Source of the DNA: Chlamydiota bacterium
GTDB lineage: Bacteria; Auribacterota; JACPWU01
Reading direction: 5' to 3'
Length of the DNA stretch: 32,000 nucleotides
Assembly (NCBI GenBank): GCA_016196885.1
Contig: JACPWU010000003.1
Location: forward strand, 60,001-92,000
This document shows, one piece after another, positions 1 through 16,755 of this stretch (positions are counted from its first letter, which is position 1; each line of letters starts with the position of its first letter). The position numbers and the translations under genes are program-made. Below the pieces are notes generated by a model. That model did no database searches, was not told the origin of the DNA, and saw only the letters and a list, made by a program, of their open reading frames with translations.

Positions 1-3000
1 CGCCAGGATGTGGCGTTGGCTTTTGTCATCACATTGAGACGGCAGGGATTGTCCACAGAAAATGCCTTTGCGCATCTTCAAGATCTTCAACGAGCCGTGG
101 AACGGAGTCAATCTAGTTTAAACTATTTAGAATCATTGCTAGGTTCTGAGACTTCAAATCAGGTACGTGAAGCGGTTGAACGAGGAGATCGACAGGCTTT
201 ACTTCTCTTGAAAAGAGAGATTATGGATGGATCGAAGGTTTGTATTGATCCTAATGTCGATCGATATTTAATATCCCTTCTGCAGTTTATTTCAAGTGAG
301 GGTGCTGTCCATATGGACCTCATGCTAGATAAGATGGCCGAAGTGCTCAAGGCCCATCGTAAATCTCATCTTTCTTTACAGACCGATCTTGTCCCAGGTC
401 TTCAGATTTGGCAGGCAGAAATGTCGGTTTATGGCTGGGGGGAACTTGAGAAGGTTTTTGGGAAAGACATCCTTCAACAAATTCAAGAGGCTGTGAGGCT
501 TGACAAGCCAGAAGATGTTGCGAAAATTACACTTTCTCCTGACATTCGTCACCGGGCCGAAGAGGCCATGGTGGGATCCAGCCGAGGAAGGCCGGTGGAG
601 CAATATATTCGATATGTCCTTCTGATTTTAGAAATCGAGAAGGCTCCCTTGACACTCCCCTTTCATGAAGTGACTTTTTTTGGAGAAGATTTTTTTAAGC
701 GAGGCGCCTCTCCTACTTTCATTTTGGATTATTTTAAGGCCAGAACTTACCTAAGATCCAGTTATTCTCTTTATCATCGTGCCGCGGGCAATTTTGAAAG
801 TTTGGAGCCGTTTATTGAGGAAGTGGATCGCGAGAATAAAACGATCATGGGTTCACAGAAAGAGAGAAGGCTTTTTGTCCAACCTCTAACCCCCCCCGAG
901 AAATTGTCACCGGGGGAAGAGGGGTCCTATCTTTATCGCTTCGAAATGGGACTCGATTCCTATTTTGACATGGGTAATCATGATATTCAGATGTCGGCCT
1001 TGATTGTTCGCGGCGAACGAGAGATGTTATGGAAATTTGAAGAAATGAGGGTGAAGCATATTCCTGAGCTTAGGGAACAGTTGGCTGAGGCAAGAGAGCG
1101 CGGAGATGAAAAATTAATCGAGCAACTCGAAAAGGCTTTAGAGAAATGGAAAGAGGCTCGGATCGTGCCGTTTACTTATCGGGAAGTAAAAGAATTTCTC
1201 GAAGCAATTAAAAAGGGGGAAATGGATAAGCATGAGATTGATCTATTTTTTGAAACCGCTCTTTATTTTCAAACCAAACTTTTGGATTCGGGTCTCGTGA
1301 CGCTGGACTACTTTAATGGTGTGTCCTATTTAGTGAATCATTTTTGGAACGAACCCGGCCTTTTTGAGTGGCTGATGCAGTATCGTACGGAAACTAAAAT
1401 TGTTGAATTGTGGACCCAAGAGCCTGACAAAAAGGATTTGGGGCCGGAGGGAAACCGCTGGAAAATCTATTCACTTTTGGGACGCATGATTGCTCAAGGA
1501 ACTCCGTCTAGCGAATTGGTTGAGCGCCTGGTGAATCTTGATTTAGAACTTTCAGGGAAAGGGGTTCCCAATGATCGGTCAAAAACTCGGATGAAAGAGG
1601 GCATTGAAGCATTTCAAATTTTGAGGGATGTGATGATAGAAATGTTGGGGCCGAGCCTTCATAATCAAGAAAAGAAGACGGCCTTTCGCCGTTTGATTGA
1701 GGAATTGCTTGAGAGCCCATCTTCTTTAGGTCCATCTTTAGAAAATTGGCTTTGGGGTGTTCTGGAAAGCCGTATTGGAATCACGGAGGCTCAAGATTGG
1801 AAATTAAATAAAGAACGACTCTCTCAAGTTAGAAAGGATGATGAAAAGACAAAGGCGGATACGGCTGATCGTGCAAATGCCATTATGAGAGAACGTCCCA
1901 ACCTTTTAATGAAGACAGATCTTAAAAAATCTGATTTGCGTCTTTTAGGAATGGATCCAAAAACGGCGGATGAGTTCTGGCAATATTTAACTCAATCAGG
2001 ATTTCTTGAACCGAATCGGGAATTGGACGGCCTTTTAGCGGGCAACGTGAGTCAGGACTTAAGAATCCGGTTAGTTGCGGACGAAAGGTTAGGAGGAGAA
2101 CTAGAGGCCTTGAGGGTGGGGATGTCAGAAGAAATGCGAGAGGAAATGACAAGGTTATTGGGGTCGCCTTTGATGCAGGGTTTGGATGATGTGCTTTTTT
2201 CTTCCGTCAATGCTGTAGAGGAACTTTTGAGTGCAAAGATCCCAGAACCCTTGAAAAGATATTTACCGGTCACTCTATTGAGTTCCATGACAGCTTTGGA
2301 GAAAGTGAAGTGGATTCGGGAAGAATTTTTAAGTGATCCAGCCACTTTCGAGTTGGTGATGAGTCGCTCTGTTCAAGTACAACCAAGAGAGCCTGGGATG
2401 GAGCACGCTCTTGAACAATTGAAAACCATTCTTCTTTCTAAAAATGCCTCTTTAAAAGGGATTTTTGAAAAGCATGCAGATGCCGTGGGTCGCATTCAGG
2501 GCGCTTTAAGAGATGCTGGCCCTTCTTCAAGAGAATATTTAGAGGGGCTATTGGCATTGGTATTGCCCGATAAACTGGAGCAGTCGCATGGGAAAGATGT
2601 TGTCAATGACAACGATCCTTTTAAACCTCTTAAGCCTCTTCAATTTACTTTAAAGTGGGAGAGAAAATTAAGTCCTGAACTGCGTTTGCATTTGGGTCAG
2701 CTCTTTGAAGATCTTATCAGACACCGAGAGGAGTTTGAGATACAGCCTTTCACGGATGAAAATCGTTCTTCTATTCGTCAAATTCTTGGAATAGCCTCGA
2801 CAGATCGAAATCAGGCTTTTGAAGGTTTAAAAGCCTATTGCAGAGATGAAGCAGTCATAACTCGAGCCCTAGACAGGGCTGTAGAAGGAGATATCGAGGG
2901 GGGGCTTGCTTTATTAGAGCCTTTTGCGAAAGAGGATTGGATCTTGAGGGGAGTTTTTCGGCTTAAGGCTGAAAAGGCCGATGTTCAAACGGCGGTAGCC

Positions 3001-6000
3001 ATTTTAGATCAGTTGTATCCTGGATTTCACATTGATCCAGGTTATTTAGAAACTTTAGAAACACGGATGAAGGAAGGATATCGTGCCTCTGATATCCGTC
3101 ATTATCTCGAACACCGTGAGCGTGCGAATGCCCTTCTTCTTGTGATGCACAATTTGGATGATGAACAAGTCAAACGTTCGCTCCTTCGTTTGGAAGGACG
3201 GTTCCCAGACAATTTTTCAGAACTTTTCCCTGAAGAACGAAAGAAATTCGATGATGCGGTTGATGGACCTCTAAAAACAGAAATAACTCAACTGGCTTAT
3301 TTGGTAGAGGCTTATCGCAAGCTTCCTTATCGAGGGCCTCGCGTTCAGTTTAAAAAAACAGGGATTCTTTATCCAACTTATCACCCTGAAGTTCGTGTGT
3401 TGATGGCTCTCCCTGAAAATGAGTTGGAAGCAAAATTAGTTCAGGCTTTACAGGATTCTTTAGGAATTAGACTTACCCCCGAGCAGTTAGAACGGCTTAA
3501 GATGCGAGATATCAGTAACGGGGATAGTGGTGAAGTTGTAAATCGAATTCTCAATTTTGGAAATGATACAGCCGATGTCTTGCGCAAACTCTCTTACAGT
3601 AATTTTGGAGTAGATTGGCGGGTGAAACTGATGCTCTCGAATTTGGAAGGACTCGATCGAGAAATGCCAGACACGGTTCGCGATGAATTAAACAGCGCTT
3701 TAGGAGAGGATGTTGTTCATCAGATTGAGACAGCTCTTCAGATGACGAGAACATCAGCAGATTCTCTCCATCAAAGCCATATTTCGATGTCTGAGCCTTT
3801 ACGAACGGAATTAACGGGTCTTTTGGGTGCACCGCTTCTTGACTCAATGAATGTTATTTTTGCCTCTGAGACTGTATCCTTAGGGGAGTTGGGTGAAGGT
3901 AAAGGGTTAGAGCCTCTAAAGCCTCTTTTGGGAGAGACCCTTGTCTCTTCAATTCAAGCAGTTTTATTGGATCATACAATCCCAGACCCTCAGAAGATCA
4001 CAACTCTAAGAAATATTCTATCTCGAGATGAGCATGGAGCTACGATACTCCGTATGGTTTCTTTATTCCCTGGAGATTTAGCCATTCCAAATACTCTGGA
4101 TAAGCTTCATGAAATTTTGCCTGATCTTGATAACAATTCATTAACGATACTGGTTCATTTGAGAACCTTATTGGACCCTGACTATTTTAATCGGCTGAGA
4201 GTATTAGTTTTAGCTGATACAACGGCTTGTGATGTGATTCGTTATCACCGAATGGATACAAAAGATCCTGCTTATGAATATTTCAGAGCCCTCAGAGTCA
4301 TTGTAGATGACAAGTCTCGTGTCGATCTTTTAAAGGAGATTGTCCTCGATCAAAAGTTTTCTTCTCCACAAGAAGGTAAAAAAATAAGTCCTCCAAAACT
4401 TTCTGAACAGGCTAGACAATGGCTTTCTCTGACCATGCTCCTCACAGAAGGGTCTTATCGGCCTGAACTTTATAATCTTATCCGAGAAAATCCTGCCACG
4501 GTCGTCTCACGCATGCGGGGGATGATTTTGGTGGATCAAGCCAGCGTTGACATCATGGCCAATGCTTATGTTCGCGAGGGACTTTCCTATCATGATGCCC
4601 GGCAATTGAGGGATGGATGTACGATTTTGAGCGAGGCCATTCTCTCCAAGCACAAGGACTTGAGAATAGGCTCAAAAGCGCCAGAACTAACTGAGATGGT
4701 GTACTACCTCTCAACGGTCCTTCAAGACTCGGTTTGGGGTCAACCGGTTGTTCCAACTCCGGTGGTGACTCCTTCTATGATAAGGGAAGTCGTGGAGGAA
4801 TGGTTTGGCACAATCAAGGCTGATTTAAACCTTTCAGAGGCTGATTATAAGGCTTTAATAGATCAAGTGACAAAAAATGCCCTGACACCTGATGGCAAAA
4901 AAGTTCGGGTGGCTCCACATGAGATTAGACTGGTGGTTGAAAATGCCAGAGCCATCTGGACGGGCGCAAAATTTACGGGTGAAGAGTTTTTTCCCGACAA
5001 ACCAAATCCTAAAGCTGAAAAGGCTTGGAAATTACTACGCATTTATTGGGAGCAAGAAAACAAAGGGCGACCCCGCACATTCGGGGATGTTTTTATTCAC
5101 GCCCTTCGAAGTGGGAAAACCAATTTATTAGAGTATTTACCTCAAGAGGATCTTGCGTCCCGTTCTCTTCCTCAAGAAGAGGAATTGGAACAATATCTTG
5201 AGCGCAATGCAGAAATTTTAAAGTCCGTTGGGTTTGGTGACCTGCATATATCAGATATTCGTGAGCATGAACTTAAGATGAACGATGCCATGGAGAAGGT
5301 CTGGACCTATCTTTTAAAGGATGATCTTGAGAAAAAATATGGGGATAAGATTGAGACACCGAAGGGATCAGATGAAAAGATACCCAAAATCCTTCTAGGA
5401 ATGGGTGCAGTCGGATGGGGGGTGGGAATATTAGCTAACGTCAAAACATCTGTGAAATCAGGAAGGATTTCAAAAATTCTAAAAGGGTCTGCATGGTTGA
5501 CAGGTATAGCGGGAAGGCTTCTTTTCAGAGTCGCTTGTCATTTTTTAATCGCCTTTGCTGCCGCCTATCTCTTTGATTTATCTTTTGAACGAGGCTACTT
5601 GGATTCGTTCTTAGAATCTCTCGGAGATTTTTTTGGTTTTATCCCTCCTAAGTTTGAGACAGGTTCACTACCCAGAATATTTTATGTCCTGAAATTTATG
5701 AGTCTCAATGTTTATAAAAATGGTCTACCACTCCTGGCTATTTTGGTTTCTTTCTTTTCTATTTATGCGGGAGGACTTGTGGCCCATGGCCTCTTTGACC
5801 GCAAAAACCAATTGAAAAATCGTACCCGAAAAATCGTACATACTGCCATTGAAATTCTTCTTCCGGTCGGAGTCTTTTGGGGATTGGTCTTCACAGAGTC
5901 TTTTGGGCCCATAGGACCTGCCTTTGAGGCCCTGGGACATTTGGTGACATTGACCCTTATTTTTATTCTCACCCTCTATCATACGGGAGCGATTCGTAAG

Positions 6001-9000
6001 TTGATTCTCGAAACCCTTCCTCATTATCTCAAGGTTTATTTGAAGGCTTTGTTTTTAAAAGAAAACATGGATCGTGAAAAAGAGCATGCCCTTGCCCCCT
6101 TAAGAATGAATCTCTACATGATTCCACACCGTTTTGTCATGCTCATTTTCGCGATCTTTTACGGTGTTCTCATCACCATGCACGTATCCTCATCTCCCTG
6201 GTTGACAGCCCTCGTTACGGCGATGGTCTCACTTCTTTTTTGGTCCAATGCCTATGTCTCTGTCACAGGTGTGGGGGATGTGATCATTGCGCCCCGTACA
6301 TTGAATGAACATCCCTGGATTAAGAACCATGGCATTATGCCCATGAAATACCATAGTGCCCTCTTTGTTCCCTTTATAGCAAGTTCTAAGACGGATGCCC
6401 GAGATGTTCTTATGTTGGTTCATCGCTCGTTCCTTGAAAATGTAAAAATGTGTGAGGTAACCAAAGATGACCATGGCACTTACACCATTCAACATTTTGA
6501 TGGAACAAAGGATCCAGATGTTCCGATCGAATTCTTTAATCAGAAGTTGCGGGAAAGGATACAGGGTCTTAGTCGAGGGGGAGAGGACTTCATCAAAATT
6601 CCAGACCCACGAGATCAGCTCAAGGTGATTATCAACAGTCAGGTGAAGGATAAAGAGGTGATGCAATTAGAGATAGAATTGATCAAGAAATTTCAGGAGG
6701 AATTGGGAGACGATCGTTTTATTTGGATACATCGCAACATGGATGATCCTTTCTTGAGAAAGCCCGGAACGATGTATGATGCCCTTGCGGGGTTACTCTT
6801 AAAATATTTTCGCCCCGCGGTCTATACAGGTTCTGTCATAGATAAGAGAGAAAAAATCATCAGAACAGATAAAGAAAGTGGAAAAAAAGTAGAGCTTTTA
6901 AGGTATGACCCTTCTGACCGGTATGGGCTGAGGGAACGGAGGGTGTTCAAAGTGGAGGGAATGAAAATCAGCGACGACGCGGATTTCTCGTTTCACATGT
7001 ATTTCTATGGGGATGATCCGGAAAATCCCCTTTTTGAAATTGAGGAAGGTGCACTTTATGAAATCCAATACCGTGAAGAAGGGGATAGAACAATCAGAGA
7101 ACGTGTTCATCTTGCGCATGAACATGAATATGAAATCAGCGATTTAGATCTTAATCATGTTTCGATTATGAGTCGTGAAACAGGAAAGCCTTTCAAGGAT
7201 TCAAGGGGAAGGGTTTTAACACCTCGTCCTCTACGCTTTTCAATGGACAGCATACTTGAATATAAAGATTCCGAAGATCGTGCTGTCAAATTAAGCATTG
7301 ACCCCGAAGGAAATACTCTTTGTCTGGAAGATTATACGGATCCTAGAACCAATATTTTCTATCCCAGAGGAAGTATTTATTCCAGGGCAGGTACGCATGA
7401 GTTGGATTTCACTTATCATCTTTATAAAGTAGATTGGAAAACGGACAAGGCTACACTTGTAAGAGATGAAGAGAATAAACCCCTCCGTGTGGACATTGTG
7501 AAAAGAACCTATACTGCAAATGAAAATCATGTGGACTTGCAGTTCTTGAATGATTTTAAAGATACAGAACCCGCTGTCTTTTTAAGGGTTGGAGATTTAA
7601 CAACACCTAAAGGCGAACTTCCTAAATACAAAGGTCAAGAATTAACCTCTAAAAATTTTGAGTATAGTGGCGATGTTCTGGAAGAAGGGAAAATTATCAC
7701 TACCAAAATCATTGGTTCTAAGCAGTTTCGACTGAGAGCGGCAAGAGATCAAAATGGAAATTTGATTCCTGAAAATGAGGTAGAAATTTTATATTTTGAT
7801 TTGGTTCCTGTGGATGGTGAAAACGCAAAGCCAGAAATTAGGGCGGTTCGAATCGCAACCCCAGAAGATTTGCTTCATAGAACAAGAAAAGGAGATTTAA
7901 TTTCTGGAGGGAAGATTAACGAGGAGGTTGAGAAGAAGCAGGCTGTTTTAATCAAAGAAGACGGTTCTCTGGAATTTGGTGAAAATTTTCTCGGGAATGC
8001 TCTTAAAAAAGGTTTATGGAAAACCACGTATGGAAATGGGTTTTTCTTGAAGGATAGAAAGGGAAATTTGGTTCAGGATCCGAATCAAGAAGGGCGCCCC
8101 TTCATACAAGGACAGTTTTTCGGTGAGGGGGATTGGAGAAGGCAAAATCCCTTGCTCCCTATATGGAAGGTAAATCCAGATTTGATTGGAGGCTTTCAAG
8201 AGAGTGGAGTTTTAACGGCTAAAGAAGCTCGCCAGATGTCAGAAAAAAATACGGTGCTTGGAGATGTTCACAGTCTTCACATGGGGAAACGAGGGGATGA
8301 AAAGCATTATTTAATTTCTCGACTAAAAGAGGGTGGAGCCCCTACCCCTGGAAGACAGGTCCGAGGTGGCTTTTTGGTGAATGAAGCAGATGACTATTTT
8401 GAAGTGACGCGAGAGAATTTAAGTGAGGCCACGCGTAAAGGAAATGATACGGGGGGCGCTAGAAAAGGTGCTTTGGTCCACAAACGCATCGAGCTAAAAA
8501 ATGGTCGATGGATTGAGGTTTGGAGTGTCGTGGCTGAGCAGGCTAGAGATTTTGATCTCTTAAAGCCAGTAGAAGATAAGGATACAATGATTCTTCGTGA
8601 GAAAGGTAAGCCTCCTATTCTTGGTAAGAAAGGCAAAGAAGGAAGTGGCCTTTTTTATCTTCATAACGCTCAAACAGGGCAAGTGGTTTTAGATCTTGCA
8701 GGCCATAAAGTCGAAGCGGATCATGCGGTAGAAATTTTTCATCAGCCTGATGGGGATAATGAGTTTCTGATTGGGACAGTCCATTATGTAGGATCCAGGC
8801 AGGCCCTAGAACGCGAATTTGACAATGACTACAGCATTTTCCAAGAGGAATTGCCTTTTGACCTGGGCAGTTGGGGAAGGGCACATTACCCGACTACGCA
8901 AACGATTGCACAAAATAAACTATTTTATCCCCTGGCATTGATGTGGAGACTCGCAGGTAAAACTGCCTTTTTTGGAAAGGGATCTCACACGGGATCTACC

Positions 9001-12000
9001 TTCCTTCGCAGAATCATTCTGATGGAGGCGACCAAAGCCATCCAGAGAAGTCACGATCATACAGAGGCCGGGGCGGGGGGTTCCGCTTTGATTGAAGCCG
9101 TAGAGGCAGGAAGGCCCAGGCGCGGGGTCGCGTGGGCTTACCGAATTGTCTTCTTAGGGATAGGTCTTTTAGCTTCTGCATTTGCCCCTTCTTATATTTC
9201 AAAACCGGTATGGATTATTTTTCTCCTCATGGTCAATCCCTGGTGGCTTAAAAATGAATTTAAACATAAAGGAAAGCAAATGGAGGAGGCCCATTCGAGC
9301 TATACTTTTTCAAAGGCCCGTTTACAAGAGTGGCGAGTCGGGGACAACAAGATTCAGCATATCAAAAATCTTTATTATCGGGCCTTTGTCTATTTTATCA
9401 GAAGCTATACCCAGCCTCGCAATTTCCCTAAGGCGATTAAAACCCTCTTTCAGGCCTTTAAGGAGACTCCCACGCTCATCGAAAAATTTATCACCTGGAT
9501 GAATTTTATGGGCATTCAAAATGATCCAACCTTTGCGGGTTGGCTGGGTCTTTTATTTTTTACGGTTTTTAAGCCAGGCATGAGGGAATTGGCTTTCCCC
9601 TGGCTCTCAGACCTTCTCTTTATCAGCGCCATGATGCTTCTCATCAGTGTGACCTATCAAATCCGTCCCGTTCTGCGTAGAATTTTTAGGGAGCCATCTC
9701 CTAATATGAGAGTTTGGCTCTTGCGTACGGGGCGCAATTTGCTTGCTTTTGTCATCCCAATTATTATTGCTGTTTTGGTGGGTGATTTCGTCTCCACAGA
9801 GTGGACAGGCTTAACCCAGGATCTTTTTGACGGCCTAAGCCACTTTTTCAGAATGAGTTATAGCTTAACAGTAGGTCAAGGAAATCGTTTCTTAAGCATT
9901 AATCCGTGGATTCATATATTTAACAGCGTTCCCTATGTGCTGACCATGGTTTTAGGCTGGGGCTTCACATCCGTAGGAAGAGACATTGTCCGTGAATTTT
10001 ATCGCGGCATGTATTTGGTGTTCTGCAGTACATTGGTCCTCATCCGTAATTTATGGAATGTGACAGAAGCAGGGATCGTGGCCCTCAAATCACATGTGAG
10101 ATCTATTCCCGCAAAATGGACCACAGGGTCGGTGATCGAAGGATTTATGATGGATAATCTTATTAAAACAACCGACTTCTTCAAAAATGGTCTACCCCTT
10201 TTCTTGATTGGGTCAGGGCCTGTTGTCCTAACTGTTTTAGGCATTATACAACCCACCTATTTGGGTACTTCTTATACCATTATTATCTTTTCATTGATGC
10301 TAGGCTGGCTGGCGGATAAATGGACTACCGATTATGGCATGAAACGCTTCTATAGATTTCCTCAAATGGGCGTGGCGGAGGACCGCATTCAGGAACTCGT
10401 GTTTAGTTTGGAGGAATTCAATCTGAGATATAAGAACAGTGATAAAGATGAATACGCCTTCCGCCGTCGTATTCGTCAAATCGGAGGTCCCGTCCTTGTG
10501 TTTAGTAAGGACAAAGGTTATGAATTAGGAGAACGAGATTTAGCGCGACTTTACTTATCTAAAAATTATTTTCTGGCAGAGCAAGAACTCCAAGAAATAT
10601 TTCCCCTTTTATACATCCAAGACAATCTTCTCGATCAAAATATTAATAGAATTCTAAAAAGAATCAATAAGCGTAGAGAGGGACATGTTGAACTACTTCA
10701 GAAAGAAGTCTTGGAAGCCATTTTAAATATATTGAGAGGCAAAGAGAATGAAATCAAGGAAACCGATTTACGTCCTTTTCTTGAATATTTAGGAGAGATC
10801 TATGATTTAAACCATCGTGATGTAGAGCGTCTGTACGCTTGGTGTGCGATGAATTTTGAAAAATTTAACAGGCGGATTGTCTCAACATTTTTTACGTGGC
10901 CTTATGAGCCTGAGCTAAGAAAATGGTTAAAAGATCGAAAAGAGAAAAAGTCTTGGCAAACCATCGAAGGCAAAACGCTTGACCAAAAATTGGAAATTTT
11001 TGCCGAGCGCTTTTTGTTTAAGCCGGGCGTCTTTGCGGGTCACACCCGATTCTGGCAATATCCCCTGGCCCAGGATGGACCCTGGTGGGCCTATTTATTG
11101 GTTTTTTCAGCCGTCTTTGTCCCTGCCTGGCTTTTCTTTTGTGCCTATCTTGGATTTTTCTCCTTCATCGTACCTCTTTCTTTTGCCCTCTTGGCGACCT
11201 TGGGCATGTTAGGATCTGGACAATACTTAGCACTCAGCATAAAATCCTTGGCTCATCCTGAAGCCCGTAAACATCAGGTTTCCTTGCCCCGATATCTTCT
11301 TCAAACTATTTTTAAGAAATTGATGTTTTGGAAATCTGGATCTGAAAATGTGATGACCACCCTATTCTATTCAGTCCTTGCACTTCTAAAGATAGCAGCC
11401 ATCGGCCTCCTTTTTAATTTTAGCCATGTGAGTGCAATCATTTTGTTTGTTGCAGGCACCATTGCCATCATGTCCTGGGCTATGAAGCGTTCTCACAAGA
11501 TTCTCTTTGCCGTTTTTGGAACGGTCTTTACCTTTGGCCTTTTTGCGGAATTTCTTCTCATGGTTGAAATATCGGTGGGAGCAACCCTCTTTTTGTCAGC
11601 CCTTCCAACCCTTCCTTTGGTTTTTGCCGCAATCGCCTTATATCTCCTCTATCATATTCTGAATTATTACTTAGCTCGAACGGACGAATTCTGGAAGAGC
11701 GCTGAAGATGAAAAAAGGATGGATGCTATTGTACAGTCAGGGTTGGGACTCAGAGAAGAACTTGAGCCTGGATTTCAAGAAGGAAATAATTTTCGCACAA
11801 CGAACCCAGACACTCAGCTCTTGATTGACCTTGGTATTTTGGAAGGGGTGACCTCGTGGAACCGTCAGGGCGGTGGGGGATCAGATTCTGAGCCTTCTGA
11901 CGTTCCCCCAGCTCCCTGGGCGCCTCCTTTAGGCGAGGTCGAAGGTGGAAGGCCGAGGGTGGAAGGAAAATCACACGAGCGAGAAGTTGTTGACTCAGGT

Positions 12001-15000
12001 GTCCAGGCTCCAGCTTTGAGCCCAGTTCGTCCAATGACCTACGAGAAATCTGCTGGAATTAATGTCCCTCACATCATGACCCTGGATGAAATTCGAAAAG
12101 CCATTGCTCAGATTCCTCGGGATTCTTACCCGGGACTAGGGTTGGCAGCATATGCAGACGGTCTTTTTGTTTACTTGGAGGTACGTCCATCTGTACGGGG
12201 AGAGGGATGGGAGATTCCAGATGTGGTGGAGTTTTTTGTTGAGGATGAGAGGGTGTATTTTGCTACGAGTTGGAAGGGATCGGTATTGTATTTCTACTGT
12301 TCTAATCAAGTGGATGAGGGTGGAGATTTGTTGCCTGCTGCTCCTATTGAAAGAGACGCCTTTGAAGCGGCTCGGGCGAGGAGCCAAGGGCAAGCGCCTT
12401 CTATAGAAGAAGGCGGATCGCCAGCTCCAACCGCTTTACCTGCCTCATCGGGCCCGACGAATCAGGTCGCTACAGGGGAGGGTTCGGAATCAGTTTCTAG
12501 TGAATTAACTCCCCCGGCCCCTCCTAAGAACGGTGAGTCTATAAGCGCAGGAAACCTTTTGCCTGATCAAGGAACGGAAAATCCTTCACTTGATTTAAAA
12601 GCAGAAAACCCTCCCCTGGGTGTAAGGGGAGATGGAGGGGTTAGTGCATTAGCATCTGAACTTGCCCATACATCTAGCGTAGCTCAGCCCTCAAGAGTTG
12701 AATATCTCTCCCCTGGATGTGATGTCTCTGCTTTGATTGCTTCAGATGAAGCTTATGTTTCAAGAGAAGGCTTTCGGCATGAAGACTTGGCCCTACCTTT
12801 AGAGGAAGCCATTAAGCATGCTCTGAAAAGCGTAGTAGGCGAGAGCAATTTTATTTTTGGGAAAGAGACCTATTTTATTTCTTATGGGGGTATAAATTTT
12901 GTTGTGAATGACGGATTAGGAAACTCGTTACAGGCGCGAAGATTTTATAGGGTTACGCGGATAAAGACGTTGGAAACAATTCATTTTCTGGATGTGGCGC
13001 CGCGATTGATCAGAGAACATCATTTGTATGGAGATCCTAAAACATCCTATCGTGTGGAGCCTGCTCAAATTATTGAAATGTTTTATCCTTCAGAATTTGA
13101 TCTTGGGGGAGGGGGGGATGAGGGGGGTGATGGATCTCTTGAATCCAATGAGGATTTTGAAGGTGAGAGTTCTTTGGCTCCTTTAGAAGCAGAAGATTTG
13201 GTGATGGAGGCGTGGGGTCATTGGGGGGAGTTTGGTTCATTGAATAGATCCCCTGAAGGGACTGTACAGAGAATGGGGCGGATTCAACATGATATGACCT
13301 TTGCCCGTGGTTTTCTAGCCAGGGCAGAAGGGGCTTCGGATGTTTCGAAAAGCTTGGTTTTGTTAAATAATGCAGAAGTGCTCTTAAATTCGGCATGGGA
13401 ATCTATATCGGAAGCTGATCAATTAGGCCTAGATCTTGACCTGCAGTTAGGGGTGGATGTTCTTAATGAATTGCTGCGACTCGAAAAGATCAGAGAAAAG
13501 ATTTCTGGGGGAGAAGCTTCTTCAAAACTCAATGGGCATAAAACGGTAACTCCCCCAGCCCCTCTTACTCCAAGAGGGGGGAAAACTGTGGATCTAAGAG
13601 CGGGGAAAGCTGCAGATCTAAGAGGGGGGGGAACTGCAGATCAGGGTTCTTTAAATTTTTCTCGTACTTTAAGTATGGATCCCACGATTTTGCTCGTCTT
13701 ATCTCAAATTTTTTATGGATTTGTCTGGGTTAGTTTGGGGGTTCTCTTACTGGCAGGTTTAATCGGATGGTATGTGGGGTCTCATTCTCAAAACGAAAGT
13801 CCCAGTTTGAAAAAGATGGCAGGGATTGCGATTTTAATCTTGGGGCTTTTTGGGATTGCGATTTCTGCTTCTTCTGACCTTTCAAATCAGCCTTTGGCTG
13901 CATTGCTGCCTCAGCAGACTTCTGATCTGCAAGTAATTGCAAGTAAAACAGAAACTCCCAGAGTTGACGGACCAGTGATAGAAGAGAAAAGAGATGAACT
14001 AAAGCTAGTTGAGATTGCTCCACCTCTTAAGTTTGTAGAGCAGCAAACTTATACATGTTATTTGATTGCTTCTCCAAGTGATGAAACAGAAGAGGGAGAT
14101 GAAGATGATGAGGAGCTGGATGAGATGACCCCTGTAGAGGCAGTGGCAGATGATGGAAGTGAACCAGATTATTTTGATATTGATTATTATGCAAGAGGAG
14201 CATCATCTTACACAATTTCTTATCGTTCTCACATGTTCGGAGTTTTTCCGTATGAGATCTCGGGAAAAGGGGATGCCGAAGATGAAAATATAGAAGATCA
14301 AGAAAAGGTCATCCCCGACTTCATGACCCCCCCTCCCGAAATCATCGAAATGATTATTCAAACATTTGTGAGAGAAGCCAAGGGGAATGGCCTGGATGAT
14401 GCAGCCTTCAAAGAAGAGGCTGAAAAATTGGCTCGGGCCTTGCTCAGACCTGATGTGACGCCTCAAGATATCGAAGCAGCTGCAGATGCGATGATCGCGT
14501 TTGTTGCTGAAGACGGGGTTGAAAGTTCAGCTCAAGGAGCCAGTCTCGATGAGAGTGCGTTACGAAAAATGAAAGAAGATATTTTGCCGATTCTTTTTTA
14601 TATGGCAGATCTTCCTTATGCCGAGTCGCTCATTTTTTCTGTGAGCGATGATGGGTTGTCTCCGGAGCTTTTACGCCGTATGAATGTTTCTAAGGAGATG
14701 CTCAGAAAAGAGGTGGTTGTTGATCTAGGGGGTTCTGTAACCATCGATCTTACCCCGATTTCTCCGAATCTTTTCTCGATCGTCTTAAAAGAAATTATGT
14801 CTGCTAATTCTGAATGGATGAAAACAGGAGTTCTTCCGATTCACATTGCAACTTCTAGTACATTGCCAGAAGGCCTTGAGCTTGTCGCCATTTTTGATCG
14901 CGATAGGAACAAAATCAAAGTTTTCCCGATGACCACCCTGGGGGGTACGCCTCCACTGATCCTCACAAATCGCCGAACACAGACTGAACGTATCCGAGAT

Positions 15001-15039
15001 CAGGCTGGAACTGCTGGTTTACGTGGAAGGCAGTATTAA
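1..15039 (+). CDS. Giant multi-pass membrane protein, 5'-partial (>=5,012 codons in window)
   Basis: This frame is open from nt 1 (codons cgc cag gat precede the track's GTG at 10, no stop) to TAA at 15037-15039. Composition is protein-like throughout, with four hydrophobic helix clusters. Only short shadow ORFs occur in other frames. Confidence 0.85.
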   Translation, partial: RQDVALAFVITLRRQGLSTENAFAHLQDLQRAVERSQSSLNYLESLLGSETSNQVREAVERGDRQALLLLKREIMDGSKVCIDPNVDRYLISLLQFISSEGAVHMDLMLDKMAEVLKAHRKSHLSLQTDLVPGLQIWQAEMSVYGWGELEKVFGKDILQQIQEAVRLDKPEDVAKITLSPDIRHRAEEAMVGSSRGRPVEQYIRYVLLILEIEKAPLTLPFHEVTFFGEDFFKRGASPTFILDYFKARTYLRSSYSLYHRAAGNFESLEPFIEEVDRENKTIMGSQKERRLFVQPLTPPEKLSPGEEGSYLYRFEMGLDSYFDMGNHDIQMSALIVRGEREMLWKFEEMRVKHIPELREQLAEARERGDEKLIEQLEKALEKWKEARIVPFTYREVKEFLEAIKKGEMDKHEIDLFFETALYFQTKLLDSGLVTLDYFNGVSYLVNHFWNEPGLFEWLMQYRTETKIVELWTQEPDKKDLGPEGNRWKIYSLLGRMIAQGTPSSELVERLVNLDLELSGKGVPNDRSKTRMKEGIEAFQILRDVMIEMLGPSLHNQEKKTAFRRLIEELLESPSSLGPSLENWLWGVLESRIGITEAQDWKLNKERLSQVRKDDEKTKADTADRANAIMRERPNLLMKTDLKKSDLRLLGMDPKTADEFWQYLTQSGFLEPNRELDGLLAGNVSQDLRIRLVADERLGGELEALRVGMSEEMREEMTRLLGSPLMQGLDDVLFSSVNAVEELLSAKIPEPLKRYLPVTLLSSMTALEKVKWIREEFLSDPATFELVMSRSVQVQPREPGMEHALEQLKTILLSKNASLKGIFEKHADAVGRIQGALRDAGPSSREYLEGLLALVLPDKLEQSHGKDVVNDNDPFKPLKPLQFTLKWERKLSPELRLHLGQLFEDLIRHREEFEIQPFTDENRSSIRQILGIASTDRNQAFEGLKAYCRDEAVITRALDRAVEGDIEGGLALLEPFAKEDWILRGVFRLKAEKADVQTAVAILDQLYPGFHIDPGYLETLETRMKEGYRASDIRHYLEHRERANALLLVMHNLDDEQVKRSLLRLEGRFPDNFSELFPEERKKFDDAVDGPLKTEITQLAYLVEAYRKLPYRGPRVQFKKTGILYPTYHPEVRVLMALPENELEAKLVQALQDSLGIRLTPEQLERLKMRDISNGDSGEVVNRILNFGNDTADVLRKLSYSNFGVDWRVKLMLSNLEGLDREMPDTVRDELNSALGEDVVHQIETALQMTRTSADSLHQSHISMSEPLRTELTGLLGAPLLDSMNVIFASETVSLGELGEGKGLEPLKPLLGETLVSSIQAVLLDHTIPDPQKITTLRNILSRDEHGATILRMVSLFPGDLAIPNTLDKLHEILPDLDNNSLTILVHLRTLLDPDYFNRLRVLVLADTTACDVIRYHRMDTKDPAYEYFRALRVIVDDKSRVDLLKEIVLDQKFSSPQEGKKISPPKLSEQARQWLSLTMLLTEGSYRPELYNLIRENPATVVSRMRGMILVDQASVDIMANAYVREGLSYHDARQLRDGCTILSEAILSKHKDLRIGSKAPELTEMVYYLSTVLQDSVWGQPVVPTPVVTPSMIREVVEEWFGTIKADLNLSEADYKALIDQVTKNALTPDGKKVRVAPHEIRLVVENARAIWTGAKFTGEEFFPDKPNPKAEKAWKLLRIYWEQENKGRPRTFGDVFIHALRSGKTNLLEYLPQEDLASRSLPQEEELEQYLERNAEILKSVGFGDLHISDIREHELKMNDAMEKVWTYLLKDDLEKKYGDKIETPKGSDEKIPKILLGMGAVGWGVGILANVKTSVKSGRISKILKGSAWLTGIAGRLLFRVACHFLIAFAAAYLFDLSFERGYLDSFLESLGDFFGFIPPKFETGSLPRIFYVLKFMSLNVYKNGLPLLAILVSFFSIYAGGLVAHGLFDRKNQLKNRTRKIVHTAIEILLPVGVFWGLVFTESFGPIGPAFEALGHLVTLTLIFILTLYHTGAIRKLILETLPHYLKVYLKALFLKENMDREKEHALAPLRMNLYMIPHRFVMLIFAIFYGVLITMHVSSSPWLTALVTAMVSLLFWSNAYVSVTGVGDVIIAPRTLNEHPWIKNHGIMPMKYHSALFVPFIASSKTDARDVLMLVHRSFLENVKMCEVTKDDHGTYTIQHFDGTKDPDVPIEFFNQKLRERIQGLSRGGEDFIKIPDPRDQLKVIINSQVKDKEVMQLEIELIKKFQEELGDDRFIWIHRNMDDPFLRKPGTMYDALAGLLLKYFRPAVYTGSVIDKREKIIRTDKESGKKVELLRYDPSDRYGLRERRVFKVEGMKISDDADFSFHMYFYGDDPENPLFEIEEGALYEIQYREEGDRTIRERVHLAHEHEYEISDLDLNHVSIMSRETGKPFKDSRGRVLTPRPLRFSMDSILEYKDSEDRAVKLSIDPEGNTLCLEDYTDPRTNIFYPRGSIYSRAGTHELDFTYHLYKVDWKTDKATLVRDEENKPLRVDIVKRTYTANENHVDLQFLNDFKDTEPAVFLRVGDLTTPKGELPKYKGQELTSKNFEYSGDVLEEGKIITTKIIGSKQFRLRAARDQNGNLIPENEVEILYFDLVPVDGENAKPEIRAVRIATPEDLLHRTRKGDLISGGKINEEVEKKQAVLIKEDGSLEFGENFLGNALKKGLWKTTYGNGFFLKDRKGNLVQDPNQEGRPFIQGQFFGEGDWRRQNPLLPIWKVNPDLIGGFQESGVLTAKEARQMSEKNTVLGDVHSLHMGKRGDEKHYLISRLKEGGAPTPGRQVRGGFLVNEADDYFEVTRENLSEATRKGNDTGGARKGALVHKRIELKNGRWIEVWSVVAEQARDFDLLKPVEDKDTMILREKGKPPILGKKGKEGSGLFYLHNAQTGQVVLDLAGHKVEADHAVEIFHQPDGDNEFLIGTVHYVGSRQALEREFDNDYSIFQEELPFDLGSWGRAHYPTTQTIAQNKLFYPLALMWRLAGKTAFFGKGSHTGSTFLRRIILMEATKAIQRSHDHTEAGAGGSALIEAVEAGRPRRGVAWAYRIVFLGIGLLASAFAPSYISKPVWIIFLLMVNPWWLKNEFKHKGKQMEEAHSSYTFSKARLQEWRVGDNKIQHIKNLYYRAFVYFIRSYTQPRNFPKAIKTLFQAFKETPTLIEKFITWMNFMGIQNDPTFAGWLGLLFFTVFKPGMRELAFPWLSDLLFISAMMLLISVTYQIRPVLRRIFREPSPNMRVWLLRTGRNLLAFVIPIIIAVLVGDFVSTEWTGLTQDLFDGLSHFFRMSYSLTVGQGNRFLSINPWIHIFNSVPYVLTMVLGWGFTSVGRDIVREFYRGMYLVFCSTLVLIRNLWNVTEAGIVALKSHVRSIPAKWTTGSVIEGFMMDNLIKTTDFFKNGLPLFLIGSGPVVLTVLGIIQPTYLGTSYTIIIFSLMLGWLADKWTTDYGMKRFYRFPQMGVAEDRIQELVFSLEEFNLRYKNSDKDEYAFRRRIRQIGGPVLVFSKDKGYELGERDLARLYLSKNYFLAEQELQEIFPLLYIQDNLLDQNINRILKRINKRREGHVELLQKEVLEAILNILRGKENEIKETDLRPFLEYLGEIYDLNHRDVERLYAWCAMNFEKFNRRIVSTFFTWPYEPELRKWLKDRKEKKSWQTIEGKTLDQKLEIFAERFLFKPGVFAGHTRFWQYPLAQDGPWWAYLLVFSAVFVPAWLFFCAYLGFFSFIVPLSFALLATLGMLGSGQYLALSIKSLAHPEARKHQVSLPRYLLQTIFKKLMFWKSGSENVMTTLFYSVLALLKIAAIGLLFNFSHVSAIILFVAGTIAIMSWAMKRSHKILFAVFGTVFTFGLFAEFLLMVEISVGATLFLSALPTLPLVFAAIALYLLYHILNYYLARTDEFWKSAEDEKRMDAIVQSGLGLREELEPGFQEGNNFRTTNPDTQLLIDLGILEGVTSWNRQGGGGSDSEPSDVPPAPWAPPLGEVEGGRPRVEGKSHEREVVDSGVQAPALSPVRPMTYEKSAGINVPHIMTLDEIRKAIAQIPRDSYPGLGLAAYADGLFVYLEVRPSVRGEGWEIPDVVEFFVEDERVYFATSWKGSVLYFYCSNQVDEGGDLLPAAPIERDAFEAARARSQGQAPSIEEGGSPAPTALPASSGPTNQVATGEGSESVSSELTPPAPPKNGESISAGNLLPDQGTENPSLDLKAENPPLGVRGDGGVSALASELAHTSSVAQPSRVEYLSPGCDVSALIASDEAYVSREGFRHEDLALPLEEAIKHALKSVVGESNFIFGKETYFISYGGINFVVNDGLGNSLQARRFYRVTRIKTLETIHFLDVAPRLIREHHLYGDPKTSYRVEPAQIIEMFYPSEFDLGGGGDEGGDGSLESNEDFEGESSLAPLEAEDLVMEAWGHWGEFGSLNRSPEGTVQRMGRIQHDMTFARGFLARAEGASDVSKSLVLLNNAEVLLNSAWESISEADQLGLDLDLQLGVDVLNELLRLEKIREKISGGEASSKLNGHKTVTPPAPLTPRGGKTVDLRAGKAADLRGGGTADQGSLNFSRTLSMDPTILLVLSQIFYGFVWVSLGVLLLAGLIGWYVGSHSQNESPSLKKMAGIAILILGLFGIAISASSDLSNQPLAALLPQQTSDLQVIASKTETPRVDGPVIEEKRDELKLVEIAPPLKFVEQQTYTCYLIASPSDETEEGDEDDEELDEMTPVEAVADDGSEPDYFDIDYYARGASSYTISYRSHMFGVFPYEISGKGDAEDENIEDQEKVIPDFMTPPPEIIEMIIQTFVREAKGNGLDDAAFKEEAEKLARALLRPDVTPQDIEAAADAMIAFVAEDGVESSAQGASLDESALRKMKEDILPILFYMADLPYAESLIFSVSDDGLSPELLRRMNVSKEMLRKEVVVDLGGSVTIDLTPISPNLFSIVLKEIMSANSEWMKTGVLPIHIATSSTLPEGLELVAIFDRDRNKIKVFPMTTLGGTPPLILTNRRTQTERIRDQAGTAGLRGRQY
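5390..6275 (+). other. Hydrophobic helix cluster 1 of gene 1 (~8 predicted TM segments)
   Basis: Translated runs include ILLGMGAVGWGVGILANV, LFRVACHFLIAFAAAYLFDL, GLPLLAILVSFFSIYAGGLVAHGLF, LLPVGVFWGLVF, LVTLTLIFILTLY, FVMLIFAIFYGVLITM and LTALVTAMVSLLFW. Confidence 0.6.
9127..10314 (+). other. Hydrophobic helix cluster 2 of gene 1 (~8 predicted TM segments)
   Basis: Translated runs include VAWAYRIVFLGIGLLASAFA, VWIIFLLMVNPWW, FAGWLGLLFFTVF, LLFISAMMLLISV, LLAFVIPIIIAVLVG, VPYVLTMVLGWGF, LPLFLIGSGPVVLTVLGII and IIIFSLMLGWLA. Confidence 0.6.
11080..11675 (+). other. Hydrophobic helix cluster 3 of gene 1 (~6 predicted TM segments)
   Basis: Translated runs include WWAYLLVFSAVFVPAWLFFCAYLGFFSFIVPLSFALLATLGML, LFYSVLALLKIAAIGLLF, AIILFVAGTIAIMSWA, LFAVFGTVFTFGLFAEFLLMV and LFLSALPTLPLVFAAIALYLLY. 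Confidence 0.6.
12506..12643 (+). mobile_element. MITE-like element copy A, in frame inside gene 1
   Basis: The left end is TAACTCCCCC (12506-12515). The right end is TAAGGGGAGATGGAGGGGTTA (12623-12643), preceded by its partner arm AACCCTCCCCT (12607-12617). The same ends occur at 18605-18753 and 30790-31064. Span is 138 bp = 46 codons. Confidence 0.5.
13548..13647 (+). repeat. Partial copy of the element's left end, followed by a 24-nt tandem repeat (x2.8) containing a G8 run
   Basis: TAACTCCCCC lies at 13548-13557, followed by the hairpin CCCCTCTT/AAGAGGGG (13560-13567 / 13573-13580). The 24-nt units lie at 13579-13602, 13603-13626 and 13627-13647 (partial), encoding GKTVDLRA/GKAADLRG/GGTADQ. 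The G8 run is at 13625-13632. Confidence 0.6.
13687..13870 (+). other. Hydrophobic helix pair near the C-terminus of gene 1
   Basis: Translated runs are ILLVLSQIFYGFVWVSLGVLLLAGLIGWYV and MAGIAILILGLFGIAISA. Confidence 0.55.
14957..15033 (+). repeat. 77-bp direct repeat R1 (coding 3' end of gene 1)
   Basis: 75/77 identical to 15702-15778, with mismatches only at 14963/15708 and 14981/15726. Repeat period is 745 bp. Confidence 0.95.
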
Positions 15040-15051
15040 GATTCTTCAAAA

Positions 15052-15062
15052 TGTGTTACAAT
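15052..15062 (+). promoter_or_regulatory. Extended -10-like box TGTGTTACAAT upstream of the DUF433 gene
   Basis: It matches the TGnTAnAAT pattern. It is 9/11 identical to TGTGATAGAAT at 15787-15797, which sits in the equivalent position after repeat R2. Confidence 0.3.
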
Positions 15063-15092
15063 TGCCTCGTTATTTTGAGGAGAGGAGAGTCT

Positions 15093-15317
15093 ATGAATCC
15101 CTGTATAGAAATTAATCCACGCGTTTGCAGTGGGAAGCCAGTTATTTCGGGAACGAGAATTCCTATCACGGTCATTTTAGATCAACTGGCGGAGGGTCTT
15201 TCTCTTCAAGCACTTCTAACAAAATATCCTGAACTTTCTTTGGAACAAGTGACGGGTGTTTTACGCTATTGTCATTCTGTTATAGAGCATACAGAACTAG
15301 AGAGGGAAATCATTTGA
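15093..15317 (+). CDS. DUF433 (COG2442) family protein, putative antitoxin
   Basis: The translation NPRVCSGKPVISGTRIPITVILDQLAEG...YPELSLEQV carries the GKPxIxGTRIxV core typical of DUF433. A purine-rich RBS GAGGAGAGGAGAG lies at 15077-15089, ATG at 15093 and TGA at 15315-15317. Confidence 0.8.
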   Translation: MNPCIEINPRVCSGKPVISGTRIPITVILDQLAEGLSLQALLTKYPELSLEQVTGVLRYCHSVIEHTELEREII

Positions 15318-15688
15318 AGTCTTTGCATTTATTGTTGGATCAAATGATAGATTCAAATGTTGCAAACGAACTTTCTCAAGAGGGGTATGATGTCCTAAGA
15401 GTGTCTCAAGTCGGTATGGCGAGATCAGATGATGAAGAGATTTTCAGTCTTGCCATTAGAGACAAGAGAATTTTGATCACATTGGATGAGCATTTTGGAG
15501 ATTGGGCGGTCCTTCCTTTGAACCAAATACATTCAGGAGTGATTCGAGTGAGGGTTAAGCCTACTTCTGGACGTGCGATTGCTTCTCTCTTAATTCCTTT
15601 TTTAGATAAACACAAACAAAAAAGTTTTAACAATTATCTTGTTATTATTGGGGTTTCAGGTTCTCGCTGGGTTAAAACTGTTGCCTAA
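15314..15688 (+). CDS. DUF5615 / PIN-like (COG4634) protein, putative toxin
   Basis: The translation LLLDQMIDSNVANELSQEGYDVLRV...SDDEEIFSLAIRDKRILITLDEHFGD follows the DUF5615 pattern. A TTG start at 15314 overlaps the upstream TGA (TTGA), with a GAGGGA RBS upstream. An alternative ATG lies at 15344. Stop is TAA at 15686-15688. Confidence 0.75.
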   Translation: MKSLHLLLDQMIDSNVANELSQEGYDVLRVSQVGMARSDDEEIFSLAIRDKRILITLDEHFGDWAVLPLNQIHSGVIRVRVKPTSGRAIASLLIPFLDKHKQKSFNNYLVIIGVSGSRWVKTVA

Positions 15689-15701
15689 CGGCTCAAGCAT
15701 T

Positions 15702-15778
15702 TGATCCCCACAAATCGCCGAACACCGACTGAACGTATCCGAGATCAGGCTGGAACTGCTGGTTTACGTGGAAGGCAG
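15702..15778 (+). repeat. 77-bp direct repeat R2 (non-coding copy of the gene 1 terminus)
   Basis: 75/77 identical to R1. It is followed by atgtaa (15779-15784), so it would encode ...LRGRQM-stop if it were joined to gene 1. Confidence 0.95.
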
Positions 15779-15786
15779 ATGTAAAC

Positions 15787-15797
15787 TGTGATAGAAT
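15787..15797 (+). promoter_or_regulatory. Extended -10-like box TGTGATAGAAT upstream of the MNT gene
   Basis: It matches the TGnTAnAAT pattern and lies 64 nt upstream of ATG 15861. It is conserved with the box at 15052-15062. Confidence 0.3.
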
Positions 15798-15860
15798 GTT
15801 AAGAGTAGCCAGGGAAAAGGCCATTCTGAAGATTCTACAATATTCTGTGAGGATGATGCG

Positions 15861-16720: not shown

Positions 16721-16755
16721 AAATGGACGACACTTTTCCCCAATCTTTTCTCGAT

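Follow-up and report, generated by a model that had tools for sequence, protein, structure and literature searches.

Cyclic beta-1,2-glucan synthases (Cgs/NdvB/ChvB) are proteins of ~2,800–3,000 amino acids that combine GT84 and GH94 domains and make a periplasmic glucan from uridine diphosphate (UDP)-glucose. OpgH is an inner-membrane GT-A enzyme that takes UDP-glucose as its substrate and in which the DxD motif is essential (PMC10491104). The Archaeovorins have been described as 'large' (at least 10,000 amino acids) or 'giant' (at least 30,000), with many transmembrane (TM) helices, a divergent SecA_DEAD domain, and HEAT, glycosyltransferase (GT), methyltransferase, hydrolase, and peptidase domains (West-Roberts 2023, bioRxiv 10.1101/2023.11.21.568195). 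TM helices scattered along giant proteins are the reported norm in Omnitrophota (bioRxiv 10.1101/2023.11.21.568195; 10.64898/2026.06.07.730766). Here we describe gene 1, which fills the first 15,039 nucleotides of a 32,000-nucleotide stretch of DNA from a bacterium labelled Chlamydiota (contig JACPWU010000003.1, positions 60,001 to 92,000 of the forward strand; the whole stretch is called the window below). Our best explanation, to which we give a probability of about 0.6, is that gene 1 is one real gene, encoding a giant multi-pass inner-membrane protein of 9,014 amino acids, and that this protein carries a very diverged, split polysaccharide synthase/translocase module of the OpgH/MdoH kind (family GT2) at amino acids ~1794–3440, common to a handful of mostly Omnitrophota sequences.

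Reading frame and relatives of gene 1

An earlier note on this DNA had described one uninterrupted frame of 15,039 nucleotides, open at the window edge and at least 5,012 codons long, and both observations hold. Frame +1 is free of stops over nucleotides 1–15036 and closes with a stop codon at 15037–15039 (5,012 codons plus stop), whereas each of the other five frames has between 231 and 372 stops over the same stretch (322 and 372 in the other forward frames, and 231–240 in each reverse frame). At the base composition of the window, the probability of 5,012 stop-free codons by chance is ~1e-136. The G+C content at codon positions 1, 2, and 3 is ~0.55, 0.36, and 0.40 in every 1.5-kb slice of gene 1, and gene 2 behaves likewise. 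The stop statistics and the even codon-position composition indicate that the frame is coding and compositionally homogeneous.

Positions 5861–26190 of the window are 100% identical over 20,330 nucleotides to contig JACOUD010000054.1 of a groundwater metagenome-assembled genome (MAG; NCBI GCA_016178005.1), and the same DNA is also present in a Logan contig. The gene call on the NCBI contig gives gene 1 a product of 9,014 amino acids with zero Pfam families on record. The window (1–15039, + strand, as are all features below) thus holds the C-terminal 56% of the protein, with ~4,002 codons lying upstream of it; amino acids are numbered here from the first codon in the window. The MAG is labelled 'Chlamydiae bacterium' at NCBI, and among the relatives of gene 1 that carry a name, most have the label Omnitrophota or Omnitrophica. 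The window contains no marker gene. The host is best explained as a groundwater bacterium of the Planctomycetes–Verrucomicrobia–Chlamydiae (PVC) group.

Gene 1 had no match in Pfam or NCBIfam (E≤0.1 for both), nor in PADLOC or PHROGs, and the Protein Data Bank (PDB) sequences matched neither its protein nor the profile of the family described below. A word-indexed search of 5.8 billion proteins gave no match for gene 1, and the same kind of search with the family alignment was also empty. Both are weak negatives, as the second search collected 8,000 candidates, apparently an upper limit, and missed even the known relatives P0047 and P0048. Nothing was found in scans of genome and metagenome contigs with amino acids 1–1200 of gene 1, in scans of viral contigs with the family alignment, or by tblastn of both halves of gene 1 against plasmids and phages.

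Relatives came from an exhaustive phmmer search of amino acids 2861–4060 against 1.84 billion representative proteins. It gave two matches, both at amino acids ~2880–3031: P0047 (776 amino acids, E 6.6e-7), on a contig (locus L009) titled 'uncultured Planctomycetia bacterium', and P0048 (1,185 amino acids, E 3.8e-4), which is MCX5657589.1 from a Candidatus Omnitrophica MAG. The frame of P0048 remains open up to the 5' edge of a 4.4-kb contig and stops before a convergent rhomboid gene. Scanning the GTDB species genomes with the resulting alignment yielded three further loci (L010, L011, and L012), all titled as Omnitrophota/Omnitrophica MAGs, and a metagenome scan added L014, which is near-identical to L012. 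The relatives are 20–29% identical to gene 1, and the match between gene 1 and the family reaches a local E of ~1e-15 by phmmer. They are collinear with gene 1 along amino acids 2039–3231 by phmmer and up to ~3537 by BLASTP, giving a shared span of amino acids ~2040–3540. Judged by these alignments, P0047, P0048, L010, L011, the open reading frame (ORF) at 7763–12109 of L012, and L014 form a rare family that shares the gene 1 module. Neither the relatives (E≤0.01) nor the insertion-spliced sequences (E≤10) matched a Pfam model.

One family member is a stand-alone version of the module, a 1,448-amino acid ORF in Ca. Omnitrophica 4484_49 with three TM helices before its soluble part and ~8 after it, and two independent assemblies (L012 and L014) place the boundary of this ORF identically. 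The two assemblies also have the same layout, with ORFs at 168–7772 and 7763–12109 in L012 and at 1–6162 and 6141–10499 in L014. The upstream ORF encodes a secreted, coiled-coil-looking protein of 2,534 amino acids, and its end overlaps the 1,448-amino acid ORF by ~10 nucleotides. No similarity was detected between gene 1 and this upstream ORF (L012a), or between gene 1 and gene 3.

Candidate OpgH-like module

The order and spacing of motifs in the family resembled those of E. coli OpgH by eye (LDADS ... QSSP ... WGHN ... SHDFVEA). This resemblance was taken as a lead and then tested by comparing profile hidden Markov models (HMMs) with hhalign, using an OpgH profile built from 10 sequences (E. 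coli opgH and nine diverse plasmid-borne mdoH genes). The N-terminal half of the family aligned with OpgH 232–331 (Prob 90.6%, P 1.3e-6) and the C-terminal half with OpgH 345–499 (Prob 87.6%, P 3.5e-6). In the GT-A domain of OpgH, the segments matched by the two halves adjoin each other in the correct order; in the family the halves lie ~600 amino acids apart. With the intervening insertion spliced out, a single alignment of 241 columns to OpgH 239–496 was obtained (Prob 96.5%, P 7.7e-10), and the comparison with the full family extended into the TM region of OpgH (366 columns). A reversed OpgH profile and 30 column-shuffled profiles scored 10–21 (P≥0.09), as against 52–54 for the real one, and the OpgH signal remained when gene 1 was removed from the family. 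The family matched E. coli BcsA at P 0.04 (in its TED region) and PgaC non-significantly, and is therefore closer to OpgH; the OpgH profile itself detects BcsA at 4.6e-12 and PgaC at 1e-7. On these profile comparisons, the module is probably homologous to GT2 enzymes of the OpgH type.

The arrangement of TM helices around the module agrees with this assignment. Kyte-Doolittle scans of the part of gene 1 in the window gave 18 hydrophobic helices at a threshold of 1.6 and 21 at 1.3, in four clusters at amino acids 1794–2088, 3049–3438, 3699–3883, and 4570–4624 (nucleotides 5380–6264, 9145–10314, 11095–11649, and 13708–13872), within a few codons of where the earlier note had placed four clusters with roughly 20 or more helices. 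TM cluster 1 (amino acids 1794–2088, nucleotides 5380–6264) consists of six strong helices and one weak one. Its last helices match the N-terminal TM helices of the OpgH-like module; by phmmer, gene 1 2039–2128 pairs with L010 12–101, including a TM helix. The N-half of the putative GT-A domain follows at amino acids 2164–2261 (nucleotides 6490–6783), as placed by the hhalign match to E. coli OpgH 232–331. The C-half, at amino acids 2881–3127 (nucleotides 8641–9381), is located by the P0047 match, the invariant columns, and hhalign. After it come the predicted C-terminal TM helices of the module (the part of TM cluster 2 at amino acids 3197–3438, nucleotides 9589–10314), which are collinear with the TM clusters of P0047, P0048, L011, and L012b. 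The GT domain is thus flanked by TM helices on both sides, by cluster 1 (1794–2088) before it and by cluster 2 (3197–3438) after it.

Between the two halves lies an insertion of ~620 amino acids (2262–2880, nucleotides 6784–8640), defined by the family alignments and the collinear phmmer matches. It breaks the GT-A domain between the KPG strand and the DxD strand, and it is present in every relative that covers the region. The beta-looking, Lys/Glu/Asp-rich character that had been seen for nucleotides 6290–9000 belongs to this insertion; the block as a whole is not a single soluble domain, but comprises the GT-A N-half, the insertion, and the C-half.

The alignment of the six sequences has 42 invariant columns, which are grouped in motifs. 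In the N-half, 'RKPGT' corresponds to 'RKSGN' of OpgH. The C-half has an invariant Q2915-x-D2917-x-D2919-x-E-F, in which D2917-G-D2919 (nucleotides 8749–8757) is aligned with D-A-D of OpgH, and Q2948-x-E2950 and G2992-K2993 are likewise invariant in the family. A further invariant motif, R3016-x-H-D3019-H-x-E-A, reads R-S-H3018-D3019-H-T-E-A in gene 1 (nucleotides 9046–9069) and aligns with SHDFVEA of OpgH and with the 327–352 region of BcsA, where the corresponding motif is 'TED'. An acceptor-type motif (cf. Q(R/Q)xRW) is also kept, as K3105-A-R3107-L-Q-E-W3111-R-V-G3114-D3115, with the K, R, W, G, and D invariant. The earlier note had found no P-loop, HExxH, or other catalytic signature by eye. 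This stands for the classical ones, in that a regular-expression scan of gene 1 found no Walker A, DEAD, HExxH, or CxxC motif, but it does not stand for diverged OpgH-like GT2 motifs (KPG, D2917-x-D2919, S-H-D3019-H-x-E-A, and K-x-R-x-x-x-W3111-x-x-G-D), which occur in and around the Lys/Glu/Asp-rich block. These came to light only through distant relatives and profile–profile comparison.

A mechanism may be proposed for the module. Its steps rest on established knowledge of membrane GT2 synthases; catalysis, the sugar and its linkage, topology, and cooperation with gene 2 are inferred. The module would run from TM helices through the GT-A N-half, the ~620-amino acid insertion, and the GT-A C-half to the second set of TM helices. 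By analogy with OpgH and other membrane GT2 synthases, a cytoplasmic GT-A domain would bind a UDP-sugar at the DxD/metal site and polymerise the sugar, with D3019 serving as the base. The flanking helices would pass the growing glycan across the inner membrane to the periplasm. UDP-glucose is a plausible substrate, circumstantially, because the adjoining gene 2 has a UDPGP domain (UTP-glucose-1-phosphate uridylyltransferase; PF01704, nucleotides 21501–21923, E 5.6e-10, 38.9 bits where the cut-off is 22), which could supply UDP-glucose locally. As for sidedness, which was judged by eye from the distribution of lysine and arginine, the loops of TM cluster 1 in the translation are K/R-rich at 1813–1839, 1928–1944, and 1993–2044 and K/R-free at 1964–1973 and 2064–2069. 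If the weak seventh helix (2070–2088) is real, this alternation would put the GT domain on the cytoplasmic side, where OpgH has its own. The other ~7,000 residues of the protein (its soluble N-terminal region, TM cluster 3, the low-complexity linkers, the final pair of TM helices, and the C-terminal domain) would probably anchor the module, regulate it, or present its product at the envelope.

Evidence against the assignment and alternative readings

Several observations weigh against this explanation. The HMMER profile of the family did not score E. coli OpgH above shuffled sequences, so that only HMM–HMM comparison sees the relation to OpgH. None of the curated models (Pfam PF13632, PF13641, and PF00535, and NCBIfam MdoH) or PDB sequences recognises the module, even when it is spliced. 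Gene 1 alone matches the OpgH profile weakly (P 0.003 and 0.08), and its assignment to OpgH is therefore transitive, by way of its five relatives. Structure prediction with AlphaFold2 was uninformative for gene 1 amino acids 2081–3040 as a single sequence (predicted local distance difference test, pLDDT, 33) and unusable for amino acids 2880–3440 aligned with P0047 and P0048 (pLDDT 37). We know of no precedent for a GT-A domain split by ~620 amino acids. No opgG-like partner was found in the window, either by a domain scan of its ORFs or by phmmer of E. coli OpgG against genes 1–4, and ~70% of the part of the protein in the window is left without explanation.

Four further points concern gene 1 within its family. 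The first UDP-binding Asp is lost (VIINSQ from amino acid 2209, with SD changed to SQ at 2213–2214), where L010 and L012b keep 'HSD'. The Pro and Asn of 'ExxPxN' are absent, where the relatives keep 'ENxPxN'. A hydrophobic hairpin of 45 amino acids (3043–3087, nucleotides 9127–9261), seen as a gap in all five relatives and as a Kyte-Doolittle peak at 3049–3067, is inserted in the GT domain after the catalytic HD motif and before the KRxxxW motif, and occurs in gene 1 only among the family. Gene 1 is also the most diverged member. The lost Asp, the lost Pro and Asn, and the hairpin mean that the module may be inactive here, and we put its being an active synthase in gene 1 at a little under even odds.

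These same losses, together with the 45-amino acid insert and the divergence, are what speaks for the module as a catalytically dead relic within a structural or scaffold giant, such as an envelope tether or organiser. E. coli OpgH is reported to moonlight in a non-enzymatic role (PMC3723540), which would fit such a history. However, the DxD, HD, GK, and KxRxxxW..GD motifs are invariant and kept in gene 1, the intact 15-kb frame argues for continued selection, and a UDPGP domain is encoded in the adjoining gene. We consider a relic unlikely.

The protein might instead be a polyprotein, or a fusion of functional units, that is proteolysed into an OpgH-like synthase and other membrane proteins. 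The module does occur as an independent ORF of 1,448 amino acids in two assemblies of Ca. Omnitrophica 4484_49, P0048 ends shortly past the module, and gene 1 has long Pro/Ser/Gly-rich linkers at amino acids 3884–4569. Processing of giant proteins by C39 or S8 peptidase domains has been raised by West-Roberts et al. (bioRxiv 10.1101/2023.11.21.568195), but no peptidase domain was found by Pfam in the window part of gene 1 or is on record for the whole product. Such processing, which we regard as distinctly unlikely, would in any case be compatible with an OpgH-like synthase module and does not exclude it.

A third possibility is that gene 1 encodes an adhesion or predation surface protein of the Omnitrophota 'Archaeovorin' kind, which attaches to and degrades the cell wall of a host or prey. 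Its relatives are mostly labelled Omnitrophota, it has many TM helices, and gene 2 belongs to a mosaic family of large proteins with metabolic enzyme cargo, like the published Archaeovorins. At 9,014 amino acids, however, gene 1 falls below both the 10,000- and 30,000-amino acid classes. Neither Pfam, for the window part, nor the record of the whole product shows a SecA_DEAD, HEAT, dockerin, hydrolase, or peptidase domain, none of 46 gene 2 family members resembles gene 1 in sequence, and the sole recognisable module in it is biosynthetic rather than degradative. We find this reading very unlikely.

It is extremely unlikely that the frame is untranslated or, as the earlier note had allowed for, an artefact of mis-joined genes: although this is a short-read metagenome assembly in which gene 2 is cut by the end of the NCBI contig and genes 2 and 3 are probably separated by a frameshift, assembly errors break frames and do not make 27 kb free of stops (P ~1e-136 for the window part alone), codon-position composition is uniform, the sequence is identical in the NCBI and Logan contigs, and collinear relatives cross the internal module borders.

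A nidovirus-like RNA-virus polyprotein was also considered, prompted by three huge ORFs on the same strand and by TM clusters flanking a block of ~255 amino acids. It was rejected because of the two bacterial toxin-antitoxin pairs between the ORFs, the bacterial relatives of gene 2, and the identical contig in a bacterial MAG.

Remaining features, neighbouring genes, and known systems

Outside the OpgH-like module, gene 1 begins in the window with a helical-looking soluble region (amino acids 1–1793, nucleotides 1–5379) that has no hydrophobic helix and no library match. After the module comes a helical soluble domain (amino acids 3439–3698, nucleotides 10315–11094), which shows weak conservation with the domain at the C-terminal end of its relatives, some of which terminate there; by BLASTP, P0048 683–983 pairs with gene 1 3196–3537. 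The six helices of TM cluster 3 (amino acids 3699–3883, nucleotides 11095–11649) had no relatives in the exhaustive search with amino acids 2861–4060. They are followed by linkers rich in Pro, Ser, Gly, and Glu with small embedded domains (amino acids 3884–4569, nucleotides 11650–13707), by a pair of TM helices (amino acids 4570–4624, nucleotides 13708–13872, from the Kyte-Doolittle scans), and by an acidic linker and C-terminal domain without family matches (amino acids 4625–5012, nucleotides 13873–15036). The linkers and the C-terminal part were delimited from the translation. Gene 1 had been called non-repetitive, and self-BLASTP of its protein bears this out, with no internal repeat at E≤1. 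At the nucleotide level there is a sole tandem repeat, three copies of 24 nucleotides at 13572–13642, just ahead of the last TM pair; its product is rich in Gly, Lys, Ala, and Asp and contains RGGKTVDLRAGKAADLRGGGTADQ.

Two toxin-antitoxin cassettes lie between gene 1 and gene 2 (15051–16600), recognised by Pfam at E 1e-20 to 4.6e-10. The first pairs DUF433 (15051–15317) with a DUF5615/PIN-like protein (to 15688), and the second pairs an MNT nucleotidyltransferase (15861–16190) with a HEPN protein (16187–16600). The 3'-terminal 77 nucleotides of gene 1 occur here in three nested copies. The first copy (14957–15033) is at the true gene end, where the protein reads ...TERIRDQAGTAGLRGRQY before the stop. 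The second (15702–15778, 97% identical) directly follows the DUF433/DUF5615 pair and still reads ...TERIRDQAGTAGLRGRQM before a stop, and the third (16749–16808, 72%) is decayed and follows the MNT/HEPN pair. Positions 14759–14780 and 16734–16755 also belong to this copy pattern. The arrangement looks like two successive insertions of toxin-antitoxin cassettes at the 3' end of gene 1, each of which regenerated the terminus.

Gene 2 (17163–27248) carries, besides the UDPGP domain, a weak methyltransferase domain, and its NCBI product name is UTP-glucose-1-phosphate uridylyltransferase. It has 45 relatives of 2,100–5,800 amino acids in Omnitrophica, Elusimicrobia, and Endomicrobiales MAGs, which share with it only the N-terminal ~600 amino acids. 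This shared module (gene 2 amino acids ~60–680, window 17300–19200) follows a signal anchor, is always N-terminal, and has no Pfam model. Its motifs include 'IHIQDxHxNxEAQ' and 'GGFH'. In the relative P0023, part of this module narrowly misses the cut-off of PF04187 (ChaN/Tiki superfamily), with E 5.2e-6, and the N-terminal module of gene 2 may accordingly be Tiki/TraB-like. Downstream, the relatives carry varied cargo (PGM, PEP-utilising, M48, ABC1, and GT2 domains, and SecA_DEAD in one). Such a mosaic architecture is the one described for large Omnitrophota proteins (West-Roberts et al., bioRxiv 10.1101/2023.11.21.568195).

Genes 2 and 3 overlap by ~150 nucleotides in different frames (window 27050–27250), and the last ~50 residues of gene 2 look out-of-frame. 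The first 200 residues of gene 3 contain no Met, and gene 2 amino acids 3189–3305 resemble gene 3 amino acids 57–173 with 34% identity. The two are probably one gene of ~4,580 amino acids broken by a frameshift near 27,080–27,100, which may be genuine or introduced in assembly. Within gene 2, near window position ~26955, contig JACOUD010000054.1 comes to its end, and window bases ~26955–32000 must therefore derive from a different, longer assembly of this organism. The gene 2 product on that contig (P0001), annotated as 'partial', is only 98% identical to gene 2 of the window. The same MAG has a paralogue of gene 2 (P0002) at the end of another contig (L003, JACOUD010000014.1), 49% identical over the N-terminal module; an RHH/PemK toxin-antitoxin pair precedes it, and a canonical SecA lies ~7 kb upstream. 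On the Omnitrophota contig Ga0172379_10000848 (L006), P0038, a relative of gene 2 that has PGM and UDPGP domains, directly follows a gene of 4,126 amino acids with epimerase and PFK domains; large mosaic genes in tandem arrays thus recur in this group. Throughout the window (1–32000), all ORFs of at least 150 amino acids run on the + strand and nearly all 1-kb intervals show a positive GC skew; both agree with the one-strand-per-replichore pattern reported for complete Omnitrophota genomes.

A wider and more tentative proposal is that gene 1 and its few relatives represent an undescribed class of membrane polysaccharide synthase with a split GT-A domain, here built into a single-chain 'envelope factory' of ~1 MDa. 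Working with gene 2, which contributes UDP-glucose pyrophosphorylase and methyltransferase domains, this factory would produce a cell-surface glycan, modify it, and export it. Most giant proteins of Omnitrophota-like bacteria lack annotation, and what they do is under debate; attachment and the degradation of cell walls in predation are the current proposals. If the wider proposal made here is true, ultra-small PVC bacteria would have at least some 'dark' giant proteins that act as biosynthetic machines, and not as adhesins or degradative weapons. More immediately, a protein of 9,014 amino acids without a match in curated libraries gains a testable module with identifiable catalytic residues, and the stand-alone homologue of 1,448 amino acids is small enough to express. 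The GT-A fold may also tolerate a very large insertion. The exhaustive search and profile–profile comparison gave this functional lead where HMM libraries and single-sequence structure prediction had failed.

Of the described systems, Cgs resembles gene 1 in its very large size, its place in the inner membrane, and its several TM helices distributed along a long chain. Compared by the description of Cgs only, gene 1 differs in being three times longer and in having no Pfam match to GH94/Glyco_transf_36.

The Archaeovorins (West-Roberts et al. 2023; Nielsen & Lui 2026) share with gene 1 very long single ORFs, scattered TM helices, much unannotated sequence, glycosyltransferase content, arrays of genes on the same strand, and relatives in the same phylum. 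Unlike them, gene 1 is shorter, has no SecA_DEAD and no HMM-detectable domain, comes from a MAG labelled Chlamydiae, and has no similarity to the large proteins that were sampled. So many TM segments spread over 5,000 residues had been called very unusual in the earlier note, which is true of bacteria generally but not of Omnitrophota-type giant proteins, for which scattered TM helices are the reported norm; the architecture of gene 1 is therefore not unprecedented.

OpgH/MdoH (the osmoregulated periplasmic glucan glucosyltransferase, GT2, PF13632 Glyco_trans_2_3) is similar in having a cytoplasmic GT-A domain between TM helices and in its motifs (KxG, DxD, Q, G-[HK], (S)HDxxEA, and ExxPxN...KRxxxWxxG[ND]L), whose order is identical and whose spacing is similar. 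A literature search found no paper tying OpgH to Omnitrophota. The GT-A domain of OpgH is contiguous over ~270 amino acids, whereas that of the gene 1 family is broken by ~620, and OpgH has ~520–870 amino acids in all, whereas the gene 1 module sits inside a protein of 9,014. The module also differs in lying below detection by Pfam, NCBIfam, and HMMER, in having no opgG neighbour, and in the loss of the first UDP-binding Asp.

The closest sequences to gene 1 are those of its rare family. At least one member is a stand-alone protein of 1,448 amino acids, and the relatives, unlike gene 1, keep 'HSD' and 'ENxPxN' and have no hydrophobic hairpin. What they have in common with gene 1 is collinearity over amino acids ~2040–3540, the 42 invariant columns, and the insertion of ~600 amino acids.

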